A stretch of DNA of 64,000 nt from Bacilli bacterium (GTDB taxonomy: Bacteria > Bacillota_I > Bacilli_A > RF39 > UBA660). Numbering within the stretch: the first letter of the stretch is position 1; every line of letters begins with the position of its first letter. This document shows, in pieces, positions 29,785 through 61,482 of the stretch. The notes beneath the pieces were generated by a model. That model worked only from the letters and a program-made list of their open reading frames with translations. It made no database searches and was not told the DNA's origin. Where the stretch lies: NCBI GenBank assembly GCA_017438635.1, contig JAFRUZ010000011.1:74357-138356 (forward strand), written 5' to 3'. The translations under genes were made by a program, and so were the position numbers.

Positions 29785-29905
29785 ATAAAAAATACCTAGA
29801 TAACCTAGGTATTGTTATCTTATAGCTCTAGCATTACCACCTAACTTAATAGGTTGGTGTGATTTCATAGGGCTAGTCCCTCCATCACTCTTTATAAGAT
29901 TCAAA
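29785..29905 (-). promoter_or_regulatory. SAM-I (S-box) riboswitch with intrinsic terminator
   Basis: Minus strand: P1 TCTTATA…TATAAGA. Core AAGAGTGATGGAGGGACTAGCCCTATGAAATCAC…CAACC matches the S-box consensus. The 3' element GGTGGTAATGC is present. The terminator is ACCTAGgttatCTAGGT followed by a U-run (plus-strand 29790-29812). An upstream TGTTATAAT extended -10 sits at plus-strand 29908-29918. Confidence 0.7.
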
Positions 29906-29921
29906 TATATTATAACATATT

Positions 29922-37837: not shown

Positions 37838-38590
37838 TTACTCTTCATCAAACATTAAATGTTGTATTCTATACGGATCATTAAGATACATCTTATATGA
37901 TTGATATATATCAGTATCTTCATATTTAATTTCTTTAAAATTATCATTTAAATCAAGTATTTGTGCATCTCTATAACTGATAATAATTGGAGAATGAGAT
38001 GCAATAATAAACTGTGATCCTTTCTTAACAAGATCATCTATTAAACAAAGTAAATTCATTTGTTTCTGAGGAGATAATGCTGCTTCTGGTTCATCTAAAA
38101 TATATAAACCTTTATCAGAAAACCTATTCTCTACTAGTTTTATAAAAGATTCTCCATGAGAACATTCATGTAAATTACCGCCATAAGAATCATATAATGT
38201 ACCAAAAGAATCAGGATCTTCACTTATTTTTTGTATTTCTGATATAACGTTATAAAAACTTTCTGCTCTAAGAAAGAACTTTGTCTTAGGCATACCATAT
38301 CTAGGAATAAATAAGTATTCAGATAAAATAGAATGTGTTGGAATTGTTGAAAAATTAAAATTTTGAGTGCCACCTTCAGCATTTAATCCTAAATAAACTG
38401 CAATAGCTTCAATAAATGTAGATTTACCTATACCATTTTCTCCTACAAAAAAAGTTACAGGTTTAGTAAGTTCAATTTCAGTAAAGTTTTTAACTACTTT
38501 TATATCAAAAGGATATATATCAAAAGAAGGAACCTTTCCTCTTTCAAGTTTTATCTCTTGAACAAATAATTTTTCATTATCAAAGGCCAT
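37838..38590 (-). CDS. Stand-alone ABC-type AAA ATPase (COG3910-like)
   Basis: Walker A GENGIGKST, D-loop/Walker B ILDEPEAALSP and H-loop IIASHSP. There is no TM or substrate domain. Confidence 0.6.
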   Translation of the reverse strand: MAFDNEKLFVQEIKLERGKVPSFDIYPFDIKVVKNFTEIELTKPVTFFVGENGIGKSTFIEAIAVYLGLNAEGGTQNFNFSTIPTHSILSEYLFIPRYGMPKTKFFLRAESFYNVISEIQKISEDPDSFGTLYDSYGGNLHECSHGESFIKLVENRFSDKGLYILDEPEAALSPQKQMNLLCLIDDLVKKGSQFIIASHSPIIISYRDAQILDLNDNFKEIKYEDTDIYQSYKMYLNDPYRIQHLMFDEE

Positions 38591-38609
38591 AATAAACCTC
38601 CTTTATTAG

Positions 38610-38876
38610 TTAATTATTAAATCTATTATATTTTTCCCATAATTTTCTAAATAGTTTTAAAGATAATGTAGATAAACCAAAACCTATTACAGGTACTAAT
38701 GAACTAAAATATATATTATTGTATTTAGATACAATATAGGAATATGTAACAACTACAATATAAGTTAAAACACATATTAAAAATCTTCTAAAAAGACTTG
38801 TTTCCCATTTTTTATCTAGTTCTACTCTCCTATTTCTCTTTTCAATTTCTTTAATTCTTTTTTCTAAATCTTTCAT
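38610..38876 (-). CDS. Small membrane protein, hypothetical
   Basis: RBS GGAGGTG before MKDLEK. A coiled N-terminus is followed by 2 TM helices. It lies 3 nt after the yggS-like stop. Confidence 0.4.
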   Translation of the reverse strand: MKDLEKRIKEIEKRNRRVELDKKWETSLFRRFLICVLTYIVVVTYSYIVSKYNNIYFSSLVPVIGFGLSTLSLKLFRKLWEKYNRFNN

Positions 38877-38918
38877 AAATACACCTCCGAAATAATTTAT
38901 ATTATTATAACACAATTA

Positions 38919-39551
38919 TTATTTATATACTCTTTCTCCAAATATTTTAGTACCTATTCTAATAATATCAGTACCTTCTTCTATAGCTATTTTATAATCA
39001 CTACTCATACCCATAGATAATAGTGATAAATTGTATTTAGATTTTAATGATTTCATCTCTCTAAATGAAGAACGAATATCATCTATATTATCAGTATGAG
39101 GTGCTATAGCCATTAATCCACAAAGATTAATGTTTGATAAACCTAAGCAAAAAGAAATAAGTTCATCTAAAGAAGATATACTACATCCTGTCTTATTAAT
39201 ATCATTAGCTATATTTACTTCTATTAATATAGATACAGTTTTATTATTTTTAATAGCTTCTTTATTTATTTCTTTAGCTAGTTTAATAGAATCAACTGAT
39301 TCAATTAAATATATGTTTCTTTTAACAATATCTCTAACTTTATTAGTTTGTAAATGTCCTATCATATGCCATTTAATATCACTAGGTAAACAGTCCATTT
39401 TTTTAACTAATTCTTGTACATAATTTTCTCCAAAATCTCTAATACCTAAATCATATGCTTTAAGTATTTCTTCATTACTTTTAGTTTTAGATACTGCTAC
39501 TAAAGTAACAGATCCTATCTCTTCCCTTAATTCATCTATAGCTTCTTTCAC
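38919..39551 (-). CDS. yggS: YggS/PLPHP family pyridoxal-phosphate homeostasis protein
   Basis: GTG start with RBS AGGAG. Motifs VAVSKTKS, GENYVQE and HMIGHLQTNK are present. Confidence 0.8.
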   Translation of the reverse strand: MKEAIDELREEIGSVTLVAVSKTKSNEEILKAYDLGIRDFGENYVQELVKKMDCLPSDIKWHMIGHLQTNKVRDIVKRNIYLIESVDSIKLAKEINKEAIKNNKTVSILIEVNIANDINKTGCSISSLDELISFCLGLSNINLCGLMAIAPHTDNIDDIRSSFREMKSLKSKYNLSLLSMGMSSDYKIAIEEGTDIIRIGTKIFGERVYK

Positions 39552-39562
39552 GTTACCAACTC

Positions 39563-39634
39563 CTAATAATATTATAACATAAAATAAAAATTGGAAATAA
39601 TTACCAATTTTTACCAGTTTTTAATTTATTTATT
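39563..39634 (-). repeat. Junction module copy A (~70 bp; promoter TGTTATAAT + palindrome TTGGAAATAATTACCAA + TTTTTACCAGTTTTTAATTTA)
   Basis: One of four ~90% identical copies. It is located between the SWIM gene stop and the yggS start. Confidence 0.8.
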
Positions 39635-40654
39635 ATCTAAAAAATATTTTACTTGTTTAGTTAATTTTTCATCTTCAGAATCTTCTAGTATTTGCCAATT
39701 ATATCTATCATTAACATCTAATATAGGTACTAGTTCTATATCACCATAATTATTAATTATTTCGAAGTTTTGCTCTACTACACCTAAGCATAGTAAATAA
39801 TCAAAGTTTGTAACGCGTTCTAATAAACTCTTATCGGGATTCTTATACATGATTTTATAAAAGCGATTGAACTCATTATTTCTAATTGCTAATATAACGG
39901 CATACATATGCTTACAGTAAAATTCACAAGGACATGAACAGTACACTTGCATTCTTTTTTCTTCATCTTTATATTTTATAATTGTTAGATACTTTTCAGT
40001 ACCTTCAACTATTGCAAAATATCTATCATCAATTTTTTCTAAAAATTTAACTCTAGATTCTTGATAATACTTCTCTCCTCTTTTACAAATTTGATATTCA
40101 AATAATTCATTTATATCATCATTAAATAAATCAAAATCAAATTCTTGTTTATATTCATATCTTTCAGTTGTCTTTGTTAATCCTGCTAATAATTCAAATA
40201 AAAAATCTTCATATTTTTTAGGCATATTTCTAAATATAAATACTAACAAATCAAAATAATTAGATAATGTACCAGGAAGATATCGTCTAAAAGAAAGATT
40301 AATAGTTTCACATTCTTTTGTAGGAATATTAGCATTTAATTTTACTATATAATCATTTTTTAATATTTCACCATGATAATTATAATTAATATCATTATCT
40401 AAAAAATCTTTTTTAATCATTTCAATGACAGAAGCAGATATGTATTCACATGAAATATATTTTTTAATATTTCGATCAGTTATTTCATCAAGATTAAACC
40501 AGCTTAATCTATAACTATCATTTTTAGATATTTCATTTATGCAAATATATATATTATAATTTTCATAGTTTATTAAACTAAGTTCTAAAAAAATAGGATA
40601 CTTTTTATAATACTTTTTAATCAGTTTAATTTTTTCATCATTACTAAAGTTAGA
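39626..40654 (-). CDS. SWIM zinc-finger domain protein
   Basis: RBS AGGTGA before MSNFS. The C-terminal motif CSCPCEFYCKHMYAV is a SWIM-type CxCxnCxH. Confidence 0.55.
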   Translation of the reverse strand, partial: SNFSNDEKIKLIKKYYKKYPIFLELSLINYENYNIYICINEISKNDSYRLSWFNLDEITDRNIKKYISCEYISASVIEMIKKDFLDNDINYNYHGEILKNDYIVKLNANIPTKECETINLSFRRYLPGTLSNYFDLLVFIFRNMPKKYEDFLFELLAGLTKTTERYEYKQEFDFDLFNDDINELFEYQICKRGEKYYQESRVKFLEKIDDRYFAIVEGTEKYLTIIKYKDEEKRMQVYCSCPCEFYCKHMYAVILAIRNNEFNRFYKIMYKNPDKSLLERVTNFDYLLCLGVVEQNFEIINNYGDIELVPILDVNDRYNWQILEDSEDEKLTKQVKYFLDNK

Positions 40655-40666
40655 CATAATATCACC

Positions 40667-40736
40667 TATAAATATTATAACATAAAACAAAAACTGGAAA
40701 TAATTACCAAGTTTTACCAGTTTTTAATTTAACTAT
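40667..40736 (-). repeat. Junction module copy B
   Basis: Same ~70-bp module. It overlaps the last 11 codons (…KLKTGKTW*) of the metallophosphoesterase gene. Confidence 0.8.
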
Positions 40737-41450
40737 TTCTACTAAATATACTCCTTTAACAAGTGTATTGTTTTTTAGCTTAGATTCATAACTATCATGA
40801 ATATGTCCATGAATATTAATAGGTACTTGGTTATCATATAAATACTTTGTTATACCTTTTAATCCATCATGTACTAAATCCTTATAATCAAAAATAAATG
40901 GTTTATCATGTGATAACAATATATCACATGATTCCATATTATTCATAAAATCAATACTCTCTTCATGAGTAAAAGATGGAAAATCATCATTTTTATATCT
41001 AAAACAACCCTGTATTCCTCCAATTTTAATATTATTAAACTCAATTACTTTTCCATTTAAATCTTCAATATCATATTCTTTTAATAAAGTATATCTATCG
41101 TGATTACCAAGTAAAGCAACTATTTTTTCTTTTGGTACAGTTTCTAATATAAATTTGTAATCATAATCATGAATATCACCAAGTACACAACACAAATCAT
41201 ATTTAGCATCTTTTACTTTCTTTTGAAGATCTTTATTAAGTGCTAAACTACCATGAGTATCAGCAATTATTAATAATGTAATATCACCATTAAAATCTCT
41301 AGCTTTTAGATCACTATTTAAGGTTGATTCATAATCCAAGTTTTCTTTTTTTTGCTTTTTCAAAAAACTAAAAATACCCACACAAATCACTATCCTTATA
41401 AATATTATAACATAAAATAAAAATTGGAAATAATTACCAATTTTTACCAT
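40704..41450 (-). CDS. Calcineurin-like metallophosphoesterase (possibly membrane-anchored)
   Basis: Motifs ADTHG, GDIHD, GNHD and GHIHD. The N-terminal hydrophobic segment is encoded within repeat copy C, so the exact start is uncertain. Confidence 0.6.
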   Translation of the reverse strand: MVKIGNYFQFLFYVIIFIRIVICVGIFSFLKKQKKENLDYESTLNSDLKARDFNGDITLLIIADTHGSLALNKDLQKKVKDAKYDLCCVLGDIHDYDYKFILETVPKEKIVALLGNHDRYTLLKEYDIEDLNGKVIEFNNIKIGGIQGCFRYKNDDFPSFTHEESIDFMNNMESCDILLSHDKPFIFDYKDLVHDGLKGITKYLYDNQVPINIHGHIHDSYESKLKNNTLVKGVYLVEIVKLKTGKTW

Positions 41451-41466
41451 TTTTTAATTTATTTAT
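41397..41466 (-). repeat. Junction module copy C
   Basis: It overlaps the DUF1810 gene 3' end (…KLKNGKNW*) and the 5' end of the metallophosphoesterase ORF. Confidence 0.8.
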
Positions 41467-41874
41467 TGTAAGATTATCAAATTCTCCATCATAAAACTTA
41501 TCAATTACTTTTTTAAATATTTCTATAGAAGGATCAGCATAATGAAATAATGTCATACATGATCTTACTTTTATAGAATCTGTATATCCAAATATATTAA
41601 CTATATTATTATTTAATTCATATAAAGCTTCAGATATAGAAATTAGATGTTCTCTTAATATTTCATTATTTAAATATGCTTTAGCTTCTGCAATATCTTT
41701 AATTCCATAAAACTCTGACATTGCACTATGACCTAAAGTATCAAGTTGAGGAAATATATACCAAATCCAATGAGATATTTTTCTGCCATTTTTTATTTCT
41801 CTTAATGCTCTATCATAATCATCATCTTGTGCTTTAATAAATCTTTTTAAATTATAATAATCAGAATTAATCAT
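41434..41874 (-). CDS. DUF1810 family protein
   Basis: RBS GGTGAT before MINSDYYNLKRFIKAQ. Motifs SHWIWYIFPQL and VRSCMTLF match DUF1810. Confidence 0.6.
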   Translation of the reverse strand: MINSDYYNLKRFIKAQDDDYDRALREIKNGRKISHWIWYIFPQLDTLGHSAMSEFYGIKDIAEAKAYLNNEILREHLISISEALYELNNNIVNIFGYTDSIKVRSCMTLFHYADPSIEIFKKVIDKFYDGEFDNLTINKLKNGKNW

Positions 41875-41885
41875 ATATATCACCA

Positions 41886-41955
41886 GTTAAATTATAACAC
41901 AAAACAAAAACTGGAAATAATTGCCAATTTTTTCCCAGTTTTTAATTTATCAATT
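41886..41955 (-). repeat. Junction module copy D
   Basis: Same module at the NERD-gene stop / DUF1810 start junction. Confidence 0.75.
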
Positions 41956-42846
41956 GGAAATATTTTTACTTGTATATTTACATTTAGGATAATTTGAACA
42001 ACCTATAAACTTTCCATATTTACTAGTTCTTTCAACTAATTTTCCGCCACATTTAGGACATTTATTAGGATCTTTATCATCTCCTACTAAAGTATTTTTA
42101 TAATAATCGTAATAATCAGTATCATCTTTTACATTAACGTTTAGAAATGTTTTTGCCCAATCTTCAGTAGCTTTTTTACTACCCCATAAAGTTTTATCAG
42201 ATAGTTTTAAATCATTTTGTATTCTTCTTACCAATGCATCCGCTCTAACAATCTTATCTTTTATATCCTTAGGTGCATACTTAGTATTAATAATAGTTTC
42301 TTCGTTTGTAGCACATACTAACACTTTATGAATATTAGTAAAATTGCCTTCATTTATAAGTCTTCTTACATAATTAAGTAATTTGTTTGAACTTAATCTA
42401 GTATTCCAAAGTTTTTTATATACTTCTCTTTGAGCTTCTACTTGTCTTAAAGGAGAATACATTCCTTTTCTAATCTTTTTACCATTAAAGTTATATTCTC
42501 TTAAGAAATCTCCTTTATCATTAATAATAATATTTCCATAAAGATTTTTACATTCAATAAAATAACAACAATACCTAGTTACTACTACATAATCTATTTG
42601 AGCAGTTAAGTTTTCATATTTTAAATTAATATCATGTAATACATACATACCTATATTAGCTTTAGATAATTGATATTTTATTTCTCTTTCTCCTAAGATA
42701 CCTTTCTTAACTACATATAATTCTTCTTTTATTTTTTCATTATTAGGATATTCTTTTAATAATTTTTCTAATGCATCGCGCTTTTTATTAAGACTGGACG
42801 TTTCTTTTAAAAATACTGTATCTTTAAAAGTATCAAACAACACATA
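41950..42846 (-). CDS. NERD-domain protein with C-terminal topoisomerase-type C4 zinc ribbon
   Basis: Promoter TGTTACAAT and RBS GGGGAG before MYVLFD. A NERD core (…YVVVTRYCCYFIECKN…) is present, and the C-terminus has CPKCGGKL…CSNYPKC. Confidence 0.6.
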   Translation of the reverse strand, partial: YVLFDTFKDTVFLKETSSLNKKRDALEKLLKEYPNNEKIKEELYVVKKGILGEREIKYQLSKANIGMYVLHDINLKYENLTAQIDYVVVTRYCCYFIECKNLYGNIIINDKGDFLREYNFNGKKIRKGMYSPLRQVEAQREVYKKLWNTRLSSNKLLNYVRRLINEGNFTNIHKVLVCATNEETIINTKYAPKDIKDKIVRADALVRRIQNDLKLSDKTLWGSKKATEDWAKTFLNVNVKDDTDYYDYYKNTLVGDDKDPNKCPKCGGKLVERTSKYGKFIGCSNYPKCKYTSKNISN

Positions 42847-43030
42847 CATCTCCCCAATTCTATTACATATCCATTGTAACATATTTATAAAATATTTGTA
42901 GATATTTAGTAAAGTTTGCGCAAAAAAACTATTATATTGCTCTCTTCAGGGGGCATCCATATGGAGTATTTATCTACTATTGCTTATTTTTACAAATGCT
43001 TATATATCAAGGGTTTTAGCTAAATCAAAA

Positions 43031-43153: not shown

Positions 43154-43918
43154 TTATTCAGATATAAATTTAAAACCTTTGGGAGCAACTAATGTATTGT
43201 CATTTCCATATCCAGAAATATAAAGTGTCGCTATTTGCTCTTTTCCAAGTAATTTCTTTTTATAAATATTCCATATATCTATATTTGTTTCCCAATCATC
43301 ATGAATTGTTGAGCCCACTCTCTCAAAAGATATTTCTTTACCATCTTCTGTTAATAACATACTTAAATAATCATATTCAGCCCCAATAGAAATAAGTTCT
43401 ATAGGGTTATGTTCTGTTAACCCAAAATCATCTTTTGATGTATCAGATAATGGTTTTTTTATTTCAAATGTGTCTGGATATTCTTTAATTTGATATTCAT
43501 ATTCTTCAATAAAGTTTTCTGTACCTTTTTCAAATAATCCCATATTCCAAGTTAGATCATTTGTTTTTTCATCCTTTATCATTATACATTTAGCCTGATA
43601 AATCAAAAATGCTAGTTTTTTTCTAGTATCATCATCTAAATTTTTCGTTATAGAATATCTTCTTAACAATCTATAAATATCTCGATACTTATCAGTCATA
43701 ATCATTATATCAGGTCTAGCTTCATCAATAACATCTGTTATAAAGTCATATGTTTGTAACATTTCAGCAAATGTAAACTGATGATTAGTAATATCCGAAT
43801 ACACTGATAGCATATTGGCATAGCATTTACAATCATTATCAGTTAATTCATCTTGCAAATTATTAACTTCCCTAAAGTTTTTCATTAAATCAAAAAAATC
43901 TTTATTTAGAACTTTCAT
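43154..43918 (-). CDS. Hypothetical protein
   Basis: RBS AGGTGA before MKVLNK. No recognisable domain. Confidence 0.4.
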   Translation of the reverse strand: MKVLNKDFFDLMKNFREVNNLQDELTDNDCKCYANMLSVYSDITNHQFTFAEMLQTYDFITDVIDEARPDIMIMTDKYRDIYRLLRRYSITKNLDDDTRKKLAFLIYQAKCIMIKDEKTNDLTWNMGLFEKGTENFIEEYEYQIKEYPDTFEIKKPLSDTSKDDFGLTEHNPIELISIGAEYDYLSMLLTEDGKEISFERVGSTIHDDWETNIDIWNIYKKKLLGKEQIATLYISGYGNDNTLVAPKGFKFISE

Positions 43919-44095
43919 ATCATCACCTACATTCACATTATACCATATATTTTCATAATTAAAGTGTTAATAACACTATTTTTATGCGCTTATTCATCTA
44001 ATTTGTCTATAGTATTAACAATATCATCTAGTTTGTTTCTATTATAGATGGCTTGGAAAATAGCAAAACCGATGATTAATTTCATCGGCTTACAT

Positions 44096-44470
44096 TCAAT
44101 CTAAATAAACAAAAGACTGAGGAACATAATTTATTCCAATATCACTAAGTTTTTTAGGCTTTTCATATACCTTGATGTGTCCTAATTTGTATGCAATTGC
44201 ATTTTTTTTATTCTTATAGTATTTAGAATAAAAATCTTTTGTAGTACCAGAATATTCTTTTGTTTGCTCCCATATTTTTTCAGGAGAATCCTCAAGTATT
44301 TCCTCAACATCTACCTCAGCTACTACTTTCATGATTGGCGATGTCGAATAAATAATCATTTTATCTATATTTCCCCTTTTAGCTTTTATTTTCCTATATT
44401 CATATTTTTTATTTCCAGAAAGAATTTCATCAACATATTCAGGATTAATCGGCATTAAAATCTTACACAT
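44096..44470 (-). CDS. ASCH (PUA-like) domain protein
   Basis: Small beta-barrel protein: MCKILMPINPEYVDEILSGNKKYEYRK…. An intrinsic terminator (CCGATGattaatttCATCGG + T-run) lies downstream at 44062-44092. Confidence 0.55.
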   Translation of the reverse strand: MCKILMPINPEYVDEILSGNKKYEYRKIKAKRGNIDKMIIYSTSPIMKVVAEVDVEEILEDSPEKIWEQTKEYSGTTKDFYSKYYKNKKNAIAYKLGHIKVYEKPKKLSDIGINYVPQSFVYLD

Positions 44471-44510
44471 TTTATCTACCTCCTATTATATGAATATTAT
44501 ATCACAATAT

Positions 44511-46004
44511 TTATATATTTTTATCTATTAAATAAATTTCTTTCTTCATTTTACACTTATCAAGTATTAATAATAGTTGTTCTTTATTTATATGTTGTAT
44601 AGTTTGAATTGGGCCTTTAACAATTCCTTTGTTTTTAAGAAATTTAAAATCCACATAATTATCAAAAGAATAATATAACTTAAATAGTATTACCAACTTG
44701 TCATTCTTAAATTTTTCTCTAAGTTCATTTTCGTCATATGCAGTTCTTTTTCTCACTAAATTAAACATATCATCAAAATCATCAAATCTGTTAAATACCG
44801 CATCAACAATGCCTAAAGATGTAATAGCTTTCTTTTTTCCAGATGAATAAAACAATAAGATAGAACCTTTTTGTATTTGCTTTATTTTTGAATTACATAA
44901 ATATGCTTTTTTTAATGAATTAGAGGCAGTGTTTTTTCCTTGAAAATCCTCTATACTTAATTGAGATTGTTTTTCGGATTCTTGAAATAATAAATGATGA
45001 TATTTATCACGAATAGGAACAAGAAATATCCTATTATCATCTATTGCAAAAAAAGGATAATAATTTTCTTTAATTTTCATACTTTTTACTAAAACATTTT
45101 CTAATTCGATTTTACCATCAGATCTTAAAGTTCTTTTTTTTGTGTACTTTTTAAAGCCATAACCTTCAAGCATTTCAATTAAAAACTCTTGCTTATCAAA
45201 TACTGTAACATATACTTCATCAACATTTTCTATTATTGCTTTATTAACAATGATTTTAATAAAGGTTTCCCCAATCCTTTTGCCTGTATCTGTAACTTTT
45301 AAAGTTGATATTTTCAATCTTTTAGCCGGTTTAAATGGTTTTAAAAAATCTTTATAGTCTTCATCTTTTTCTTCTACTTTAAGCATCAGAAATGAAGTTA
45401 TATTTCCATCAAGCTCTGTCACATAAGCTTGAGCCTCTTTTAATTGTTTCTTCTTAAACCACTTTTCAAATCCATCATAATCATATTTTAATGAATCAAA
45501 GAAACTATCATTTATATCTAATTCATGCAAATACTTATAATCTATAAAAACAGGTTTTCTAATTTCTTCAGAAACTTTTTCTTGGAATTTTTCAAGTGCT
45601 TGATCAATAGATAAAACTCTATTATGAAGCCCAACTTTTTTAGCTTTTTTAACTAATTCTTTATCATTAGTAATTAAATACTGAGCACAGTTTCTATATA
45701 TCGAAAACAATAACTCATTATCAATTACATCATTACTGCTGTTACATCCTACCAATTTATTAAATTGATCATTTACCTTTGGTGGCGATTTTATTTCTTT
45801 ATATACCGAAATTTTTGAAGAAAAAATATTTCTCTTCTCTTTATCTTGAATTTTCAATATTTCTTCTTTAGTTTTTGGATGTATTACAATTTTATATTGA
45901 TCGGAATCAAAAAGTCTCTTTGTTAATGTTGCAACTTTATTCTCTGTTACTACATAATCTTCTAAATATATAAACATATTAGTATCTAATAATATTTTTT
46001 CCAT
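44511..46004 (-). CDS. Three-domain fusion: N-terminal PIN nuclease, central GNAT-like acetyltransferase-like region, C-terminal PUA/EVE/ASCH-like domain
   Basis: PIN: LLDTNMFIY…ITNDKEL. Middle: …VYVTVFDKQEFLIEMLEGYGFKK. C-terminal: …ILLFYSSGKKKAITSLGIVDAVF…. Confidence 0.45.
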   Translation of the reverse strand: MEKILLDTNMFIYLEDYVVTENKVATLTKRLFDSDQYKIVIHPKTKEEILKIQDKEKRNIFSSKISVYKEIKSPPKVNDQFNKLVGCNSSNDVIDNELLFSIYRNCAQYLITNDKELVKKAKKVGLHNRVLSIDQALEKFQEKVSEEIRKPVFIDYKYLHELDINDSFFDSLKYDYDGFEKWFKKKQLKEAQAYVTELDGNITSFLMLKVEEKDEDYKDFLKPFKPAKRLKISTLKVTDTGKRIGETFIKIIVNKAIIENVDEVYVTVFDKQEFLIEMLEGYGFKKYTKKRTLRSDGKIELENVLVKSMKIKENYYPFFAIDDNRIFLVPIRDKYHHLLFQESEKQSQLSIEDFQGKNTASNSLKKAYLCNSKIKQIQKGSILLFYSSGKKKAITSLGIVDAVFNRFDDFDDMFNLVRKRTAYDENELREKFKNDKLVILFKLYYSFDNYVDFKFLKNKGIVKGPIQTIQHINKEQLLLILDKCKMKKEIYLIDKNI

Positions 46005-46033
46005 GCCATAAACCTCCCAATTGCTAATATATA

Positions 46034-46945
46034 TTATATTATGTTTAAATATCGATCCAACATTTCATTTTCAGCTTTTGTTATTAACTTAACAAAATCC
46101 GTATAATCTCCTGTTGTATGTGCTTTATCAAGTGCTTCATAGTACTTTATTCTATTTTCTTTTTTTATTATTACTGGAACATATCCACTTTTTATTAAAT
46201 CCATATTCATCATTAATCTGCATAGTCTTCCATTACCATCTAAAAATGGATGAATTTTAACAAGTTCACCATGTAATAATGCTGCTCTTATTATTGGATG
46301 ATATCCATCCCAATCTTCATAATTAATAATTAATTTTTCCATTAACTCTGGAACTTTAATATATTCTGGTGGTCTATGCTTAGCACCACTAATAATTACA
46401 TTATGGTTTCTATATTTTCCAGCATTGTCATCATCTATACCTTTTAAAATTAATTGGTGTAAACCCTTAATATTCCATTCCGATATTTCGCTTTGATCCT
46501 TTACTAATTCTTCTAGGTATTCAATAGCATTTTCATGGTTAACTGCTTCTAAATGTTCTTTAACAGATTTACCTCCAATTGTAATACCTTCTAATACTAC
46601 TTTTGTTTCTTTTAATGTCAAAGTATTACCTTCTATACCATTACTGTTATATGTCCATTCCAAATTAATTGCATCTTGTAATGTTTTAACTGCTTCTTTT
46701 GATAATGGTCTTTCACTATTGAGTTTTGCTAATTTTTCATCTACTTCTTTAAAATAATCTTCTGGAAGATCAATTTTAAATTCAATTTCATCTTTTATTC
46801 TTTTATCAACTGGTTTTGTAGCATCATCTGGAATATTCCAAATTGTTCCAATTTTTTCTGCTCCTTCAATTCTTCCATCTTGAATAAGTCTTCTTATTCT
46901 TCTTTCAGAAATATTCCATTTTTCACTAGCTTCTTTGATTAGCAT
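46034..46945 (-). CDS. Fic/Doc family protein with N-terminal HTH
   Basis: Promoter TATAAT and RBS GAGAGGTGA before MLIKEASEKWNISERRIRRL (HTH). Fic motif HPFLDGNGRLCR. Confidence 0.8.
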   Translation of the reverse strand: MLIKEASEKWNISERRIRRLIQDGRIEGAEKIGTIWNIPDDATKPVDKRIKDEIEFKIDLPEDYFKEVDEKLAKLNSERPLSKEAVKTLQDAINLEWTYNSNGIEGNTLTLKETKVVLEGITIGGKSVKEHLEAVNHENAIEYLEELVKDQSEISEWNIKGLHQLILKGIDDDNAGKYRNHNVIISGAKHRPPEYIKVPELMEKLIINYEDWDGYHPIIRAALLHGELVKIHPFLDGNGRLCRLMMNMDLIKSGYVPVIIKKENRIKYYEALDKAHTTGDYTDFVKLITKAENEMLDRYLNII

Positions 46946-47107
46946 AATAATCACCTCTCTGTATAGATTATACCACCAACGGAACAATATGTCAATATAT
47001 TTTGTTCCGAACGCGGTATATTATTATTTTATTCATTTTTTTAACATATTATAAAAACATGTTAAAGTTTTTAAATATTTTTAACATGTTCTGTAATCTA
47101 TTATAAT

Positions 47108-47923
47108 TTATAAGCTATTATATTTCTTTATAAAATCATCATGAATTTTTATCAAGTAATCATCCAAATATTCTAATGCATTATTACAAATATCCTCAGG
47201 TATACCATAATATGCAGAAGCTATGCTCCCTGTAATAGCTGCAATTGTATCACTATCTCCACCAAGTGCTATTGCGTTTCTAATAGCATCTTCAAAATCA
47301 TTTGATTCTAAAAACGCTGCTAATGATTGTTTAACTGTTTCTACGCAATTAATATGAAAGTATTGTGGTTTCATAGTATCAATTTTCAAATCATCTATTT
47401 TAAAATAATTAGTTTCTATATATTCTTTTATTTCCTCTTTGCTTTTTCCATTAAGCGCCATGTGAATTGCAACTGCAACTGTTTCTGATCCATTTATGCT
47501 ATCAGGATGATTATGTGAAACATTTGTAACAATAGCTGAGAGTTTTTTTATTTCATCAATATTTTTTGCCACCACACTTACTGCTCCAATTCTCATAGCG
47601 GATCCATTCCCAAAACTACCATATGGTTTGTGATTTTCTGATATTATCCATCTATAAAAGCTTGGCCCATAACCACAGTTTGGATATTTTCTTCCTACTT
47701 CTGTCATTGACTTTATCACTTTTTCTTCAATATCACTATAATCATTCTTAGCTTCAAGGAATGCTTTTGCCACCGCTAGTGTCATTACTGAATCATCAGT
47801 ATATCTGCAGTATTTATAAAAAAATTCAAATTCTTTTCCATATTTATTATTTACCAGTTCAAATCTTGAACCAGATATATCCCCAATAATAGCTCCTAAT
47901 ATGACATCTTTTTTTAACTGCAT
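47108..47923 (-). CDS. ADP-ribosylglycohydrolase (ARH/DraG family)
   Basis: RBS GGAGGG before MQLKKDV. Motifs GAIIGDISGSRFE and GGDSDTIAAITGSIASAYYG. Confidence 0.75.
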   Translation of the reverse strand: MQLKKDVILGAIIGDISGSRFELVNNKYGKEFEFFYKYCRYTDDSVMTLAVAKAFLEAKNDYSDIEEKVIKSMTEVGRKYPNCGYGPSFYRWIISENHKPYGSFGNGSAMRIGAVSVVAKNIDEIKKLSAIVTNVSHNHPDSINGSETVAVAIHMALNGKSKEEIKEYIETNYFKIDDLKIDTMKPQYFHINCVETVKQSLAAFLESNDFEDAIRNAIALGGDSDTIAAITGSIASAYYGIPEDICNNALEYLDDYLIKIHDDFIKKYNSL

Positions 47924-48077
47924 ATTACCCTCCAATTTCTTACTTATTTTATTTACAGCTAACAATACTTATATATCATTATAACATATTTTAAAAATTC
48001 CTATATTAAGTGATAATGCAATTTTTTTTACACCTAAAAAGCATATATAGATTTTTAGCCACATATGCTTTCCAAGA

Positions 48078-48572
48078 CTAATTTTTATAATGATCTATAA
48101 TTTCAATAGCTTCTTCAACCCATTGTTCAAGATTATTTTTAATGTCATTATACGGATCTGAAGGATTAGGATTGTAGCACTTTACTACATCCGCTAATAC
48201 TTTGCCATCATTATTTATGATAATTGAATCAAATGGGTTTTTTCCTTTTGCACATTTTCCTGTATTTGGGTCTTTTAAATTATGAATATATATTCCTAAT
48301 AATCCTCTTTTTTCTTTCCATGCTTTTTTTATTTCGTATTTTACCCATTTTCTATTTGCGGTTTCTTCTCCAATCATAACAATAACACAGCTACGATAAT
48401 TCATGTTATCATCAATCCATCTTCTTATGCTATCGTCACCTTTTCTTTTTACTTCCTCCCAATCATTATCTGAAACCGGTTTATTATCTTCTAATGCTCC
48501 TATATTTCTAATTTGAGATACTCTCATTACATCATTTTTAAAATGAAAACTATAAAAGACTTGTCTTTTCAT
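48078..48572 (-). CDS. TIR-like domain protein (DUF1863, ThsB-like)
   Basis: RBS AAGGAGG before MKRQVFYSFHFKNDV. The middle region is …IGEETANRKWVKYEIKKA…GIYIHNLKDPNTGKCAKGKNPFD. It closely parallels the Thoeris ThsB pattern (…VFFSFHY…NRRWVRYEI…GIHI…KGPNPFD) as I recall it. Confidence 0.6.
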   Translation of the reverse strand: MKRQVFYSFHFKNDVMRVSQIRNIGALEDNKPVSDNDWEEVKRKGDDSIRRWIDDNMNYRSCVIVMIGEETANRKWVKYEIKKAWKEKRGLLGIYIHNLKDPNTGKCAKGKNPFDSIIINNDGKVLADVVKCYNPNPSDPYNDIKNNLEQWVEEAIEIIDHYKN

Positions 48573-48582
48573 ATATACCTCC

Positions 48583-49035
48583 TTATACAAATCTTACAAA
48601 AATACTAATTAAAATTAATAATGAATAATATGCATATATTGAAAATGAAAGAAATGAAGATAATATCATAGCTAACATTTCAAATCTTAGTTTTGTGTTT
48701 CTTGGATTCATATCATAGATTTCAATCTCATCGACAATACCTTTATTTAACTTTTCTAAAAAGATATTATATTTATCAATATATATTTTTTCAATTCCTA
48801 AATAACACGCATCAATAATGGCTCCAACTAGTGTAATAGCTATGGTAACCCACCAATAATTGGACATTTTCTCAAGTGCAATCAAAATCATTATAATAAT
48901 GGTGTATATAAGACAAATTGACGACTTTATATTGATACTATGATTACTCATTCTTAAAATATTATTTTGAAGTATTTGCATATAGCTAACAATAGAATTT
49001 TCATTTTTCAATTTCAATATACTCTTATTTATCAA
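48583..49035 (-). CDS. Small 3-TM membrane protein co-operonic with the TIR gene (possible SLATT-type effector)
   Basis: TTG start with RBS GGAGG. TM segments are at about aa 40-57, 64-84 and 120-148. It lies 10 nt upstream of the TIR gene. Confidence 0.45.
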   Translation of the reverse strand: MINKSILKLKNENSIVSYMQILQNNILRMSNHSINIKSSICLIYTIIIMILIALEKMSNYWWVTIAITLVGAIIDACYLGIEKIYIDKYNIFLEKLNKGIVDEIEIYDMNPRNTKLRFEMLAMILSSFLSFSIYAYYSLLILISIFVRFV

Positions 49036-49172
49036 AAATTATTACCTCCTTCCCTTATAAATATTTAATTATATATGTTAACACTATTTTTTATTTTTGC
49101 AAGATTAAAATGCTAAAATGTCATATTTTGGTGATTTTCGGTATTTTTAAATATTCATAAAAAAAAGAGATG

Positions 49173-49853
49173 CTAATCTAGCATTCCTAATTCTTTCATT
49201 TTTTCTTCTCTCAATTTAGATAGAGTTTTATCTCCACCTACTTTTTTCATAAAAGCATATATTTGTATAGCTTTCCATCCAGTTAATTCACATCCGAATT
49301 GATTAAAAGACATTATTTGATCTTTATATCTAATATTTCTACTATCTTCTATAGTAGCTATTTCTTCTGGATGATTAATTAAATATACTTCATCGCCTAT
49401 ATTAATAATACCTTGTTCTATTAACCAATCCATTTTAGGTAATTGAGTAGATTTTCTTTTAGTGGTAGCTTCATCTTCATCTTCCATTTCTTTAGCAGTT
49501 GGTTCTACTAAAACTAAATTATCTTCTAACCCATTAATCTTAGCTATGCAATGTAGCAAATCATATGCATCTTCAGCAGACATTTCAAAAAACTCTCTTT
49601 TCCTTTCTTTACCATCTATATTATCTTTAGCACGTAAAGAAGGATTTAATTTATCTATAATATCATGTACTGTTTTATCTTCTAAACGATGATTAACTTT
49701 ATAATAAGCATATAATCTAAAAGCAAATGGAACTGCTGACTTATCATTTAATTGTTTTAATCTACTATATACATCATCAGCATATCCTATTTTAATATAA
49801 TCCGGAAATGACGGATTTTTTAATATGTAAATATATCCTACTGTATCATTCAT
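49173..49853 (-). CDS. T5orf172 (GIY-YIG-like, MUG113) domain protein with DUF4357-like C-terminus
   Basis: GYIYILKNPSFPDYIKIGYADDVYSRLKQLN motif. It sits immediately downstream of hsdS. Confidence 0.6.
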   Translation of the reverse strand: MNDTVGYIYILKNPSFPDYIKIGYADDVYSRLKQLNDKSAVPFAFRLYAYYKVNHRLEDKTVHDIIDKLNPSLRAKDNIDGKERKREFFEMSAEDAYDLLHCIAKINGLEDNLVLVEPTAKEMEDEDEATTKRKSTQLPKMDWLIEQGIINIGDEVYLINHPEEIATIEDSRNIRYKDQIMSFNQFGCELTGWKAIQIYAFMKKVGGDKTLSKLREEKMKELGMLD

Positions 49854-49857
49854 AATC

Positions 49858-51213
49858 TCAACTCCTATTCATTACTAACCTATCAATATCATTACATAGT
49901 GGTAATAGTTCTTCAATTATATTAATAATTCTTTTTTGTTCTTCTAATGGCGGAATATTAATTTCAAAATTTTCTAAATTCCCAAGTTTTATATAAGGAA
50001 TTGCAGAGCCAAACATTTTATTTTTATTATAATCATTCCAAAATGCGCAAAAGTAATAATATATATATTTTAAAACAATTATATCATCACCATACTTTGG
50101 TGATGCAACATATGTTCTTTGATATGCTTCAAATTTATCCTCACAATAAATAGTTAATCCAACATTAGCACCATTACCTGGTAATATTAAATTTTTACCT
50201 TCAAAAGAATATGTAGGTGCTTTAATTGGAATACTAGCACAAGTATAGAAATCATACAAACCATCTTCAGTTCCATAATTTGCATCTTTTTTTCCAGTAG
50301 TTATGTTCAAGATATCTTTAGATTTAACCCTTAACCAATTTTTTGGTATTTCGTCATAGATAATGTCACTATTGATATCAACTTTTTTATCAACAGGTAT
50401 ATTTGTACCAAGTTTTCCATTCATTAAGTAAACTAGTATTGATGTCTTTATTTTATTAGTAAAATTACTCTTTAATTCATTCAATTCACATTCTATTGGA
50501 TGTATTTCATCTAATTTGCTAAATAATAACTCAACTTTATTGACAATTCTTTTTTGTTCCTCAATCGGAGGAATAGGAATATAAAAATTTCTTAAATAAT
50601 TAAGCGATACAAATTGTTGAACTCCTCCAGAACTTTCTTTTTTCATTTTTACTTGAGAATAAACTAAATAGTAATATAAATACTCATTGTCCAATATATC
50701 TTTATTAGAATTTTTAAATAATGCAACATTTTTAATACAAAAGTCTGGTTCATCCATAATAACAACTGGATTTCCAATACTACCAATCATTGCAAACAAG
50801 ATATCACCAATATCAACTTTTGATCTATTGTTTATTATATCTGCATCATCATTAGAAATATATTTAACATTTTCTTTGTCCAATGTCCCATCAATATTTA
50901 AATTTTTACTAGTAATAAGTGGGACCCCTTGCTTGTGATATTTTGGACTATCATGTGTCCCATCTCTAACATCAATAACATAGTATAATTTACTCCAATA
51001 CCATGTATTAGGTATACAATATGGATAATCTTTTTCTGATGGTAATGTAACCTTTTTATCGAGTTTAACAATCTTTTTTTCTATTAGTTCTGAATGTTTT
51101 TCTTCGAAAATGTTTTTCATTTCCTCAATACTTTTATCAGTGTTTTTGGTTTTACTAAGTTGTCCTGAAAAAGCATAGTTTAAAATAGATATTTTTAATT
51201 CATCAATCATCAT
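49858..51213 (-). CDS. hsdS: Type I restriction-modification specificity subunit HsdS (two target recognition domains)
   Basis: Conserved repeats LEEQKRIVNKVELLFSKLDEI and LEEQKRIINIIEELL flank two variable TRDs. A 4-nt overlap joins it to hsdM. Confidence 0.85.
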   Translation of the reverse strand: MMIDELKISILNYAFSGQLSKTKNTDKSIEEMKNIFEEKHSELIEKKIVKLDKKVTLPSEKDYPYCIPNTWYWSKLYYVIDVRDGTHDSPKYHKQGVPLITSKNLNIDGTLDKENVKYISNDDADIINNRSKVDIGDILFAMIGSIGNPVVIMDEPDFCIKNVALFKNSNKDILDNEYLYYYLVYSQVKMKKESSGGVQQFVSLNYLRNFYIPIPPIEEQKRIVNKVELLFSKLDEIHPIECELNELKSNFTNKIKTSILVYLMNGKLGTNIPVDKKVDINSDIIYDEIPKNWLRVKSKDILNITTGKKDANYGTEDGLYDFYTCASIPIKAPTYSFEGKNLILPGNGANVGLTIYCEDKFEAYQRTYVASPKYGDDIIVLKYIYYYFCAFWNDYNKNKMFGSAIPYIKLGNLENFEINIPPLEEQKRIINIIEELLPLCNDIDRLVMNRS

Positions 51214-52697
51214 TCTATCTCACCAATTAAATTAATTATTTCTTTTAATTTTTTATCTAATTCTTTTTCAAGTTCTTCCCTTTTTGAAACAAAATTATCC
51301 ATAGTTTCTTTTGGTGATAGTATTACCTCTTCTTTTGTTGGATATTCACATTGATCTAAATTGTAATTTAAACCTTCTATGTCTTCAATAGTATATTTTT
51401 TTGATTTCCATGTATCTGTTAAAGATTCAGCACTCTTTTCATCCTTAATTTCAACTCTATTGTTCCACCACTCAATGACTTTATTAAAATGTTTTAGTTC
51501 AACTGGTTTTGTTTTACTAAAGGCTTTATATCCACTTGGTAAATCCATTCTATAATACCAGATTTCTTTGGTTGGACCAGTTTTATCAAAGAACAGAAGA
51601 TTTGTTGCAATTGATGTATATGGAGCAAAAATTGAACCTGGCAATCTTATGATTGTATGTAAATTACAGTCTTCTAATAATTTTTTCTTTATTGCAATTT
51701 TTGTGTTATCTAAACCAAATAAGAAACCATCTGGAAGAACAATTCCTACTCTTCCGTTTTGCTTTAATCTATATAATATTTCAACCATAAATAAATCTGC
51801 TGTTTCCGAATTTCTCAATTCAGATGGAAAATTTTGTTGAATTGATTTCTTTTCTGTTCCACCATATGGAGGATTCATAAGAATAACATCAAAACAATCT
51901 TTGTCTTCATAATCACGAACATTAATTTCTAATGAATTACCTCTGACAATTTGTGGTTCATTTATATCATGTAATAACATGTTTGTTGTACACAATAAGT
52001 ATGGAAGCGATTTTTTTTCAACACCATAAAATGATTTTTGTAACACTTCATTGCTTGATGTGTTACTTACTTCTTCTTTCATGTGATTCAAAGCAGAAAC
52101 CAAAAATCCACCAGTTCCACAAGCAAAATCAGCGATAGATTCTCCAACTTTTGGATTGACCATTTTTACAACAAAATCGGTAACAGCTCTTGGAGTATAG
52201 AACTCTCCAGATTTTCCTGCAGATTGTAAATCTTTTAATATTGTTTCGTATATTTCATTAAACGCATGTCTAACTTTAAAATCAGTTAAATCAATTTCGT
52301 TCAATACATTTACTACTTGTCTGATTAATACACCGTCTTTCATGTAGTTATTTAAATCCGTAAATACTTCCTTAACTAGTTTTCCTCTAACATCAGTATT
52401 TTCATCAACTTCTAAATCTTTTAATGTAGCAAATAATTGGATAATGAATGTTGTCATTTCATCACCAGTTATTGCTTTACCATCTTTATTATCTGGAGCC
52501 CAATTTCTCCATCTATATTCTTCTGGAATTATAGATTTATAATTATCTTTTAATATTTCCCATTCTGACTCTTTTGCGTCGTATAACTTCAAAAATAACA
52601 TCCAGACAATTTGTTCTATTCTTTGTGCATCACCATTAACACCTGCATCTTGTCTCATTATATCTTGAAGTCTTTTTATCATTGTTCCTATATTCAT
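51210..52697 (-). CDS. hsdM: Type I R-M N6-adenine DNA methyltransferase HsdM
   Basis: NPPYGG catalytic motif, an FxGxG-like SAM site (DFACGTGGFL) and an HsdM N-domain. Confidence 0.9.
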   Translation of the reverse strand: MNIGTMIKRLQDIMRQDAGVNGDAQRIEQIVWMLFLKLYDAKESEWEILKDNYKSIIPEEYRWRNWAPDNKDGKAITGDEMTTFIIQLFATLKDLEVDENTDVRGKLVKEVFTDLNNYMKDGVLIRQVVNVLNEIDLTDFKVRHAFNEIYETILKDLQSAGKSGEFYTPRAVTDFVVKMVNPKVGESIADFACGTGGFLVSALNHMKEEVSNTSSNEVLQKSFYGVEKKSLPYLLCTTNMLLHDINEPQIVRGNSLEINVRDYEDKDCFDVILMNPPYGGTEKKSIQQNFPSELRNSETADLFMVEILYRLKQNGRVGIVLPDGFLFGLDNTKIAIKKKLLEDCNLHTIIRLPGSIFAPYTSIATNLLFFDKTGPTKEIWYYRMDLPSGYKAFSKTKPVELKHFNKVIEWWNNRVEIKDEKSAESLTDTWKSKKYTIEDIEGLNYNLDQCEYPTKEEVILSPKETMDNFVSKREELEKELDKKLKEIINLIGEIE

Positions 52698-52708
52698 TAT
52701 TAACCTCC

Positions 52709-55030: not shown

Positions 55031-55333
55031 AAAACCACTCCAAACCTCATTATCTCTCATTTAACATTATAACATAAATTATGACTATTTTTAATTGTTA
55101 TACGACTTTTTTTGAAATGATTTTGAAATTTTCTATCTTTATGTTACCTTAAATGTGCACTTAGATGAACTGGTGTGAACGCTCTCTCCAAATTGAAGAA
55201 ATTGCTGGAATCTAAATGGTGTCTAAAATAATTAAAAAGCCTTATAAAATAAGGCATTAAAAGGTGTCATTGTGGTATCAGGGGGAAGAGACCAATATTT
55301 ATATGTAAAATCTTTACACAAAAAAAGAAGAAA

Positions 55334-56387: not shown

Positions 56388-57122
56388 CTATTGTTTAATA
56401 GTTCTTCTCTTCTTTTTTCTTATTTCAAATACATCTATATCATGCATCATAAATCTTATATTATCTATTTCTTTATCTGTATGATAATGTCCACAATACC
56501 ATAGTTTATAATCAGTATTTTCTTCTATTTCATCTAAAAATCTTTCTGTACTTTTATCAACTTTAGAATCATCTATACCACCCATAAACATTTCATATGG
56601 CATATATTTATATGGACATGTATGCGAAAGTATTACATCTACTTTATTATCATGTTCTTTTAATACTTCTCTTACTTTATTTTTTATTTCTTCACTTGGT
56701 TGTTCCGAAGGATACCAATTATAACCCATTTGTAATCTATAAGGTTTATCTACAGAATAAGCTCCACCAATTACTAAAGTACTTAAGCCTTCAAAATCAT
56801 ATATTTCTCCATCTTTAGCAAATAATATATTAGGAAACTCTTCTTCATAATATACTGTTCCATTATGAAACTCTTTTGTTATATATGTATCTATATTTTC
56901 AGGTCTTTCTTCGTGATTACCATGTATACAAAATAAAGTAATTGGAAGTTCTTTTAATTTATTTTTTAATATATAATCTCTTATATCTAAAAAATAATTT
57001 ATACATGCATCTCCAAGAACTATCATAATATCATCTATATCTGTATCATTTTCATAACAATATTCAAATACTCTTTCAAAATTAGCATGCTTATCTCCAG
57101 TAATATAAATCATATTTATCAC
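56388..57122 (-). CDS. Calcineurin-like metallophosphoesterase (Ser/Thr phosphatase family)
   Basis: Motifs GDKHAN, LGDACINY, GNHEER and GHYH. Confidence 0.7.
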   Translation of the reverse strand: MINMIYITGDKHANFERVFEYCYENDTDIDDIMIVLGDACINYFLDIRDYILKNKLKELPITLFCIHGNHEERPENIDTYITKEFHNGTVYYEEEFPNILFAKDGEIYDFEGLSTLVIGGAYSVDKPYRLQMGYNWYPSEQPSEEIKNKVREVLKEHDNKVDVILSHTCPYKYMPYEMFMGGIDDSKVDKSTERFLDEIEENTDYKLWYCGHYHTDKEIDNIRFMMHDIDVFEIRKKKRRTIKQ

Positions 57123-61324: not shown

Positions 61325-61355
61325 AGACAAAAAAAGTGAGGCCTTTCGGCCTCTT
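61325..61355 (-). terminator. GC-rich hairpin terminator (GAGGCCgaaaGGCCTC + U-run) downstream of recG, REP-like element copy 2
   Basis: Followed by TTTTTTTGTC on the minus strand. A second AT-rich hairpin ACAAGGTtttatttACCTTGT lies at 61405-61425. Confidence 0.55.
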
Positions 61356-61482
61356 CAGGGGGTTTTGGTTGAATACCACTTTTTACCTTAATTCGTAAAA
61401 AGCAGACAAGGTTTTATTTACCTTGTAATTTCATAATAATATATTTATTTTTTTTTGTCAATATTTTTTTATTTTGTTCTTT

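Follow-up and report, generated by a model that had tools for sequence, protein, structure and literature searches.

A 64-kb stretch of DNA (the window: positions 74,357 to 138,356 of contig JAFRUZ010000011.1, from a Bacilli bacterium of the UBA660 lineage) holds one repeat family, a module of ~65-73 nt that is present as four direct copies on the minus strand and occupies each junction in the gene series NERD / DUF1810 / metallophosphoesterase / SWIM / yggS (Table 1). We think it probable that this module is a constrained promoter/operator of yggS, which has been propagated as a 'putative mobile promoter' by ordinary recombination at the yggS-proximal edge of a defence-island hotspot. From the comparison of related loci we regard the module as the yggS promoter region of this clade, maintained under constraint, and we take its copies to share ancestry and not to have converged, since their identity also takes in positions outside the consensus and what is left of the stop-codon region of DUF1810.

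The copies, which a preliminary description of this DNA had placed one at each junction of same-strand genes, are genuine and occur nowhere else in the window, and the gene identities given in that description are upheld by Pfam. In the repeat search the ungapped identity to the reference copy ranges from 74 to 95%. Over 73 nt, copies A, B and C agree at 90-95% of positions, while copy D, the most divergent at 74% ungapped, reaches 86% to the copy A-type sequence over 65 nt once a single gap is allowed; the profile search scores the four copies at E values from 1e-13 to 2e-17. A 16-nt core has four perfect occurrences and, with up to 3 mismatches, 14 in total against a chance expectation of 4.8. 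The D-type variant is recognised by an additional G in half-site 1, a CCAG arm and TTTTTGTTTTG ahead of the -10. The array is the AT-richest 2 kb of a window that has ~26% G+C overall, in a region where nearly all genes are on the minus strand. The host is an uncultured gut bacterium; proteins identical to those of the window are on record from metagenome assemblies, and the window itself is part of a 340-kb ENA contig.

In the coding orientation, the module has the consensus TAAATTAAAAAYTGGTAAAAATTGGTAATTATTTCCARTTTTTRTTTTRTGTTATAAT, followed by a ribosome-binding site (RBS) and a start codon. Every copy contains TGTTATAAT and TTGG(T/C)AATTATTTCCA(A/G), and the extended -10 and the imperfect palindrome overlapping the -35 region, both noted in the preliminary description, are found in all of them. 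The 3' third consists of a T-rich run and then TGTTATAAT, with the RBS and start ~10-25 nt further downstream, so that the sigma-70 extended -10 layout TGnTATAAT and its spacing to the RBS and start are satisfied in the four window copies and in five copies from relatives. From this layout we infer promoter activity. The TGTTATAAT part would be the generic promoter of this genome, because TGTTATAAT with a short leader also stands before ~20 other window genes; the 45 nt upstream are found at none of those. Promoters of this kind, which lack a recognisable -35 and lie ~10-25 nt before the RBS, are present at nearly every gene (e.g. 56377, 55850, 55074, 47986, 38912, 24989 and 20431), which indicates that very short leaders and -35-independent promoters are the norm in this organism. 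One of them, at 29917, is directly followed by an S-adenosylmethionine riboswitch (RF00162, 67.9 bits; 29817-29900, minus strand), upstream of the next minus-strand genes.

The distinctive part of the module is thus the ~45 nt upstream of the -10, which is made up of phased direct repeats and an imperfect palindrome. Two direct half-sites (AAAAAYTGGT repeats, AAAAACTGGT and AAAAATTGGT), phased at 10 bp, precede the palindrome, and an inverted half-site completes the 17-bp imperfect palindrome TTGGTAATTATTTCCAA, which is centred ~35 nt upstream of the inferred transcription start. A regulator-binding site or an UP-like element is the most likely role of this segment. For the putative regulator, Fur/Zur-like, MocR/PdxR-like and CIRCE-like geometries come into consideration. 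The sequence TGGTAAT-T-ATTTCCA resembles the layout of the Fur-family (Fur/Zur/PerR) 7-1-7 box TnnTAAT-N-ATTAnnA, a lead and no result; the window contains no Fur-family gene, and its ZIP transporter (9571-10350) lacks such a 7-1-7 site.

The identification of the module with the yggS promoter comes from related loci, the informative ones being chosen by YggS homologues at 84-95% identity. The locus closest to the window (L088, YggS 95%) reads type I restriction-modification .. AIPR / NERD / module / metallophosphoesterase / module / yggS. L089, L174/L175 and L177 each have a single copy, which directly precedes yggS. In L089 (YggS 87%) it is preceded by DUF1810, which follows MmeI-like, GmrSD and ADP-ribosylglycohydrolase genes, and a NERD gene lies downstream of yggS; in L174/L175 (85%) the order is ADP-ribosylglycohydrolase / module / yggS / NERD; and in L177 (84%) DUF1810 is reduced to its final 14 codons before the module. 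There is no module in L173 and L176 (YggS 85-86%), where other genes (CYTH on L173) reach the yggS RBS, or in L090-L092 (81%), where NUDIX abuts yggS. On the P0123 contig (85-86%), for which a gene table but no DNA was available, the gap of 37 nt from CYTH to yggS is too short for a module, and in the nearest species-representative genomes, metagenome-assembled genomes (MAGs) of ruminant-gut Bacilli with YggS at no more than 79% identity, the module was not found.

Where it is present, the module is conserved above its coding background. Its 51-nt core differs by 1-3 mismatches (94-98% conservation) across lineages whose yggS differs by ~15% in nucleotides (binomial P 0.003-0.04), and 26-37% of positions differ in the 19 nt from the -10 to the start codon. 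Since the core is far more conserved than yggS itself, a shared operator for the four genes, one of the options of the preliminary description, is plausible; however, the window has no sites beyond the array.

A second line of evidence is provided by the chimeric gene ends. The metallophosphoesterase and DUF1810 reading frames both stop inside the repeat, as had been noted, with the module-derived tails KLKTGKTW-stop and KLKNGKNW-stop. The module's 5' end coincides with the end of DUF1810 (..LENW-stop) in L089 and L177, and the copies of the window and L088 hold this same DUF1810-end stretch with a 1-nt indel. Through the indel the stop lies at the second TGGTAA and no longer at the first, and this gives rise to the KLK(T/N)GK(T/N)W tail, which is now also carried by the unrelated metallophosphoesterase. 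At the 5' end of copies A-C there is a stop in every reading frame, and copy D leaves one frame open for ~20 codons. Within the window, DUF1810, metallophosphoesterase, SWIM and yggS are the genes preceded by a module, and NERD, DUF1810, metallophosphoesterase and SWIM those that a module succeeds.

The gene content between modules is lineage-specific. Set beside L088, the window contains exactly two more 'gene + module' periods, one with DUF1810 (487 nt) and one with SWIM (1103 nt). The modules themselves are mosaic: the second copy of L088 (L088-2) joins the core of window copy C (W-C) to the 3' flank of window copy A (W-A), and the copy before the metallophosphoesterase gene is C-type in the window vs D-type in L088, the copy after it B-type vs A/C-type. 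Left-half and right-half module variants do not segregate with the flanking genes, which contradicts a fixed crossover point in the palindrome. The native end of a SWIM gene, GATAATAAATAG (L186), overlaps the 5' end of the module, AATAAATAAATT, and this provides microhomology. The NERD genes of the window and L088 are alike only in their 3' ~200 nt and the module; they encode 310 aa and 253 aa, respectively, with a common C-terminal Zn-ribbon segment (94% nucleotide identity; window 41872-42079 vs L088 9070-9276, with the L089 NERD at 11303-11397) and unrelated N-terminal parts.

We think it probable that the array arose by the following route. The ancestor would have had a single module, flanked by DUF1810 and yggS, where a highly variable defence island borders on yggS. 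In the line leading to the window and its 95% relative, this unit would have been copied along with the DUF1810 stop-codon region; each added accessory gene (NERD, metallophosphoesterase, SWIM or DUF1810) is now succeeded by a copy, and the next gene receives a promoter copy of its own. Gain and loss of 'gene + module' periods are best accounted for by tandem duplication and replacement, by unequal or homologous exchange of the 60-70-bp repeats and by microhomology joints, and no dedicated site-specific recombinase would be required.

Several results weigh against this proposal. The array is invariant on 9/9 contigs that encode an identical YggS and gives no sign of ongoing shuffling within the species; the expectation that the genes between modules would vary is borne out among sister lineages and not within the species. 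The NERD-to-metallophosphoesterase junction of L088 is D-type right up to the start codon and is not a simple D/C hybrid. A plain homologous crossover between D and C would leave the 3' flank of copy C at this junction instead, and some of the events, at the least, must therefore have been other than simple exchange between repeats. On the regulatory side, there is no candidate regulator gene in the 64 kb and no operator-like palindrome site beyond chance elsewhere in the window, and a regulon is to this extent only putative. The reach of the search for further copies is also limited: it was made with nhmmer without filters (--max), with a 9-copy profile, over the window and ~0.3 Mb of related loci. 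Beyond the array copies it returned no further module. Exact-pattern scans gave 0 matches in species-representative genomes and 0 in viral contigs; the 80 matches to a 21-nt core pattern in JGI metagenomes are all due to chance, none of them extending; BLAST of the array against plasmids and phages found no match; and Rfam has nothing at E<=1 in the region. A partial, inverted look-alike of the left half of the module, AAAAATTGGTAAATTTTGGTAATTATT, lies on the opposite strand just downstream of the yggS terminator in L090 (10658-10689; also in L091 and L092). Its significance is borderline (blastn-short E 0.004, nhmmer E 0.67); a remnant is conceivable, as is a site that the same factor binds independently.

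One competing explanation is a site-specific cassette system of integron-like or pdif-like type, in which the 9-9-9 dyad AAAAATTGG-N9-CCAATTTTT would be the core site and a recombinase encoded elsewhere in the genome would insert and excise cassettes next to yggS. The near-identical repeat at every junction of same-strand single genes, the difference of sister lineages by whole 'gene + repeat' periods, a dyad geometry typical of recombinase core sites and the all-frame stops of copies A-C (with copy D open in one frame for ~20 codons) would all fit such a system. However, no recombinase was found in the window by Pfam scans of essentially all open reading frames of at least 120 aa, and none is annotated in the 20-kb loci of the relatives. 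This absence alone is not decisive, as arrays of the CALIN type (clusters of attC sites lacking integron-integrases) are without an integrase by definition, but other features point the same way. In a scan of 38900-43000, matches to attC R'' (RYYYAAC) and R' (GTTRRRY) are sporadic and not at equivalent positions in the four copies, in agreement with the preliminary failure to match canonical cores. The module folds only into a weak, A/U-rich stem of 9-12 bp and not into a structure of attC length. Half-module variants do not co-segregate with the genes beside them, every cassette comes with a putative promoter of its own, no variation of the array is seen within the species, and lineages without any array carry the module as a single conserved yggS promoter. 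We therefore regard such a system as improbable. It is slightly easier to imagine, yet still quite unlikely, that the module is the recombination site of an undescribed Gram-positive cassette-stacking mechanism, either recombinase-independent or served by an unlinked recombinase, through which single-gene defence cassettes would be captured beside yggS, each arriving with, or at once receiving, a copy of a strong, regulated promoter; the att site would then be the promoter, in effect an 'integron without an integrase'. Of the cassette array assembled by recombination that had been suggested at the outset, what survives is that the content varies between sister lineages, and what finds no support is an integron or MITE mechanism.

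The preferred reading, a duplicated yggS promoter, has also to be set against further explanations. As transcriptional punctuation, the module would combine all-frame stops, an A/U-rich bidirectional terminator hairpin and a promoter, and would insulate each gene without any regulator. In favour of this are the position of the hairpin between an A-run and a T-run, as in genuine terminators of the clade, the three-frame stops of copies A-C and the presence of an own TGTTATAAT promoter at almost every nearby gene. The bases of the palindrome can indeed fold, with a loop of 9-21 nt, but at -5.7 to -11.9 kcal/mol and with 2-3 G-C pairs, where evident terminators of the clade reach -10 to -16 kcal/mol. 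The U-run of the module is largely taken up by pairing with the A-run, and a scan for the terminator consensus is empty in the region; as the clade does have A/U-rich terminators, partial termination may nevertheless occur. The pairing also lacks covariation support: among 8 distinct copies, the inner helix has no double-sided change and the outer helix has one covarying pair, no better than shuffles. The compensatory stem variation reported in the preliminary description is instead explained as a register effect, since the 3' arm, CCAA or CCAG, in each case pairs with one or other of two pre-existing 5' half-sites, AAAAATTGG or AAAAACTGG. Considering further that a terminator would not need 51 nt kept at 94-98%, we find punctuation unlikely as a full account, and a weak terminator role for the upstream gene possible. 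A non-autonomous miniature element (a miniature inverted-repeat transposable element (MITE), Correia-like or REP-like) with an outward promoter, inserted four times, is very improbable. Promoter-bearing MITEs are comparable in size (~65-75 nt), internal inverted repeat and promoter content, but alignment of the modules with their flanks reveals neither terminal inverted repeats nor target-site duplications, the copies have the same orientation within one 2.4-kb array and always lie at a gene junction, and the 5' end is a relic of coding sequence. There is no dispersed copy in the unfiltered profile search of the window and ~0.3 Mb of related loci, and no match in viral, plasmid and phage collections or species-representative genomes. 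The earlier analogy to integron attC sites or MITEs is accordingly abandoned, the former also for want of a recombinase in the 64 kb and of cores, and because the units have putative promoters of their own. Least credible is that the four genes form a regulon whose independent promoters converged on one operator, with no common ancestry or recombination. The palindrome and phased half-sites are the best-conserved positions, as convergence would have it, but identity spans all 60-70 nt, including spacer positions and the DUF1810-derived relic, the four genes do not co-occur in relatives, and the window has no other operator-like sites.

The array displays individual features of several known systems. 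Putative mobile promoters have been defined as sequences of >=50 nt with >=80% identity in promoter regions of one genome that lie upstream of coding sequences which are non-homologous and whose upstream coding sequences are non-homologous as well (Matus-Garcia, Nijveen & van Passel 2012, PMC3488235), and recombination-mediated duplication was proposed as one route by which they spread (PMC3488235). By length and identity, and with five Pfam families flanking its copies, the module falls within this definition. It differs in that the copies here are tandem, in one array at the edge of a defence island, that the source promoter (yggS) and the single-copy state are identifiable in relatives, and that the copied unit takes in the remains of the 3' end of an upstream gene, so that unrelated proteins now terminate in this relic. 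Sedentary chromosomal integrons hold arrays with near-identical repeats, such as the VCRs of Vibrio. The module array is similar to integron attC arrays in having same-strand, mostly single-gene units between similar, dyad-symmetric repeats of ~60-130 nt, and in a cassette content that varies between related genomes. Unlike integrons, it is without integrase, attI, R''/R' cores and extended folded attC sites in the window, and unlike integron cassettes, which depend on Pc, each of its units has its own predicted promoter TGTTATAAT and RBS. Complete integrons were lacking in Firmicutes in one survey, in which CALIN elements were described (Cury et al. 2016, PMC4889954). The host of the module array belongs to a Gram-positive Bacilli lineage. 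On Acinetobacter plasmids, pdif (Xer) modules are separate blocks of genes that have short sites with dyad symmetry at their borders and are shuffled from replicon to replicon; unlike these, the module has no 11-6-11 XerC/XerD architecture. A dif/Xer reading of TTATGTTATAA was rejected: the stretch has a 9/11 match to the XerD arm, but the partner arm and the ATAA-N6-TTAT inner symmetry are missing, and it is the -10 box. Finally, descriptions of defence-island hotspots with core genes at their flanks usually treat whole systems, whereas here the last genes before the core gene are joined by copies of the core gene's own promoter.

Table 1 Coordinates of the repeat modules, their elements and the genes that they join in the window
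Feature	Position	Strand	Remarks
Module copy A	39562-39634	-	SWIM/yggS junction; also delimited as 39562-39633; orthologue of the lone yggS-upstream copy in L089, L174 and L177
Module copy B	40665-40737	-	metallophosphoesterase/SWIM junction; 5' part codes for the metallophosphoesterase tail KLKTGKTW-stop
Module copy C	41395-41467	-	DUF1810/metallophosphoesterase junction; also delimited as 41398-41468; 5' part codes for the final DUF1810 codons KLKNGKNW-stop
Module copy D	41882-41954	-	NERD/DUF1810 junction; also delimited as 41883-41957; nhmmer E 1.8e-17
Extended -10 TGTTATAAT	A 39571-39579; B 40674-40682; C 41404-41412; D 41891-41899	-	
17-bp palindrome TTGGTAATTATTTCCAA	A 39591-39607; B 40694-40710; C 41424-41440; D 41911-41927	-	
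yggS	38919-39551	-	Pfam; pyridoxal phosphate-binding, Ala_racemase_N fold; conserved anchor gene
SWIM zinc-finger gene	39626-40657	-	Pfam; 343 aa
Metallophos (calcineurin-like metallophosphoesterase) gene	40704-41381	-	Pfam
DUF1810 gene	41434-41874	-	Pfam; 146 aa
NERD + Zn_ribbon_Top1 gene	41950-42882	-	Pfam; own promoter TGTTACAAT; module 3' but not 5' of the gene
CCCCCTGAAGAGAGCAA motif	42937-42953	-	upstream of the NERD promoter; window/L001 homology breaks exactly here (42953)

The genes joined by the module have varied affinities. From the comparison with L088, the metallophosphoesterase probably starts at a GTG at 41372, and its product matches the PADLOC defence candidate PDC-S10 over the full length, though weakly; the SWIM protein weakly matches the PADLOC candidate PDC-S62. 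The closest database homologue of DUF1810 outside its own species is 66% identical. Homologues of SWIM with 50-72% identity are found at other sites in relatives, without a module, beside type IV secretion system (T4SS)/relaxase genes and type I restriction-modification or beside an HTH-Rce1 pair. In another Bacilli MAG (L188 1-18270), a 69%-identical homologue lies between T4SS/relaxase/coupling-protein genes and type I restriction-modification, a placement that suggests that the SWIM family travels as cargo of a conjugative element.

The DNA on the other side of yggS is also variable. The window (37838-38876, minus strand) and L088 have an 88-aa membrane-like protein and a 250-aa AAA_15/AAA_21 ATPase there; in L089 (10658-11410), L174 and L176, a NERD gene ending in an ordinary terminator takes the place of these two genes. 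In one contig of the same species (L004 3311-3363, corresponding to window 39156-39172), yggS itself is split into reading frames of 146 aa and 64 aa by a ~50-nt replacement or insertion within sequence that is otherwise 99-100% identical, which could be an assembly artefact or a natural disruption.

Upstream of the array lies the defence island, with type I restriction-modification, T5orf172, ThsB-TIR, ADP-ribosylglycohydrolase, SoFic-like Fic and PDC-M11 (EVE + ASCH) genes. It extends over 43154-55060 on the minus strand and includes hsdR, hsdM and hsdS, a ThsB-like TIR protein without an obvious ThsA, a Fic protein like SoFic/PDC-S04 and a 260-aa protein of no known kind. From the recG side to yggS, the content of the island differs in every lineage examined, the systems being type I restriction-modification, MmeI-like, GmrSD, a DRT-type reverse transcriptase, AIPR, ThsB and PDC-M11; those seen at the same place in relatives are MmeI-like, GmrSD, AIPR and the DRT-type reverse transcriptase, the last with an SLFN helicase. 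At the recG-side edge of the island there is a second calcineurin-like metallophosphoesterase gene (56388-57122, minus strand), which is unrelated to that of the array; it appears conserved in L089 (283-1002), and the hotspot may have its left core flank here.

Strain L001 departs from the window only upstream of the NERD promoter. We considered whether this breakpoint falls at a module, and this was ruled out, as it coincides with another motif, CCCCCTGAAGAGAGC. This motif is a member of a further family of short repeats, CCCCCTGAAGAG(A)GC, whose complete copies are followed by a G+C-rich hairpin and a T-run and are terminator-like (e.g. CCCCCTGAAGAGGCCGAAAGGCCTCACTTTTTTT after recG). Sites of this family are at 42937-42953 (minus strand) and 61346-61361 (minus strand) in the window, at 5314, 9326 and 9401 in L090, at 128 and ~205 in L089 and at 9871 in L093. 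The two window copies bracket the ~18-kb defence island, and the motif may thus mark recombination boundaries of the island.

For annotation, the array is a caution that an attC-like appearance (repeat, gene, repeat) can arise without integron machinery. The ancestral single-copy state is still visible in sister lineages, and the promoter of a core gene would have been reused here for accessory genes newly stacked at a hotspot; these are probably defence genes. The copied unit can also rewrite the C-termini of unrelated proteins. Should the 45-nt segment bind a regulator, the control of yggS would have been extended in single steps to several accessory genes that are not related to one another.

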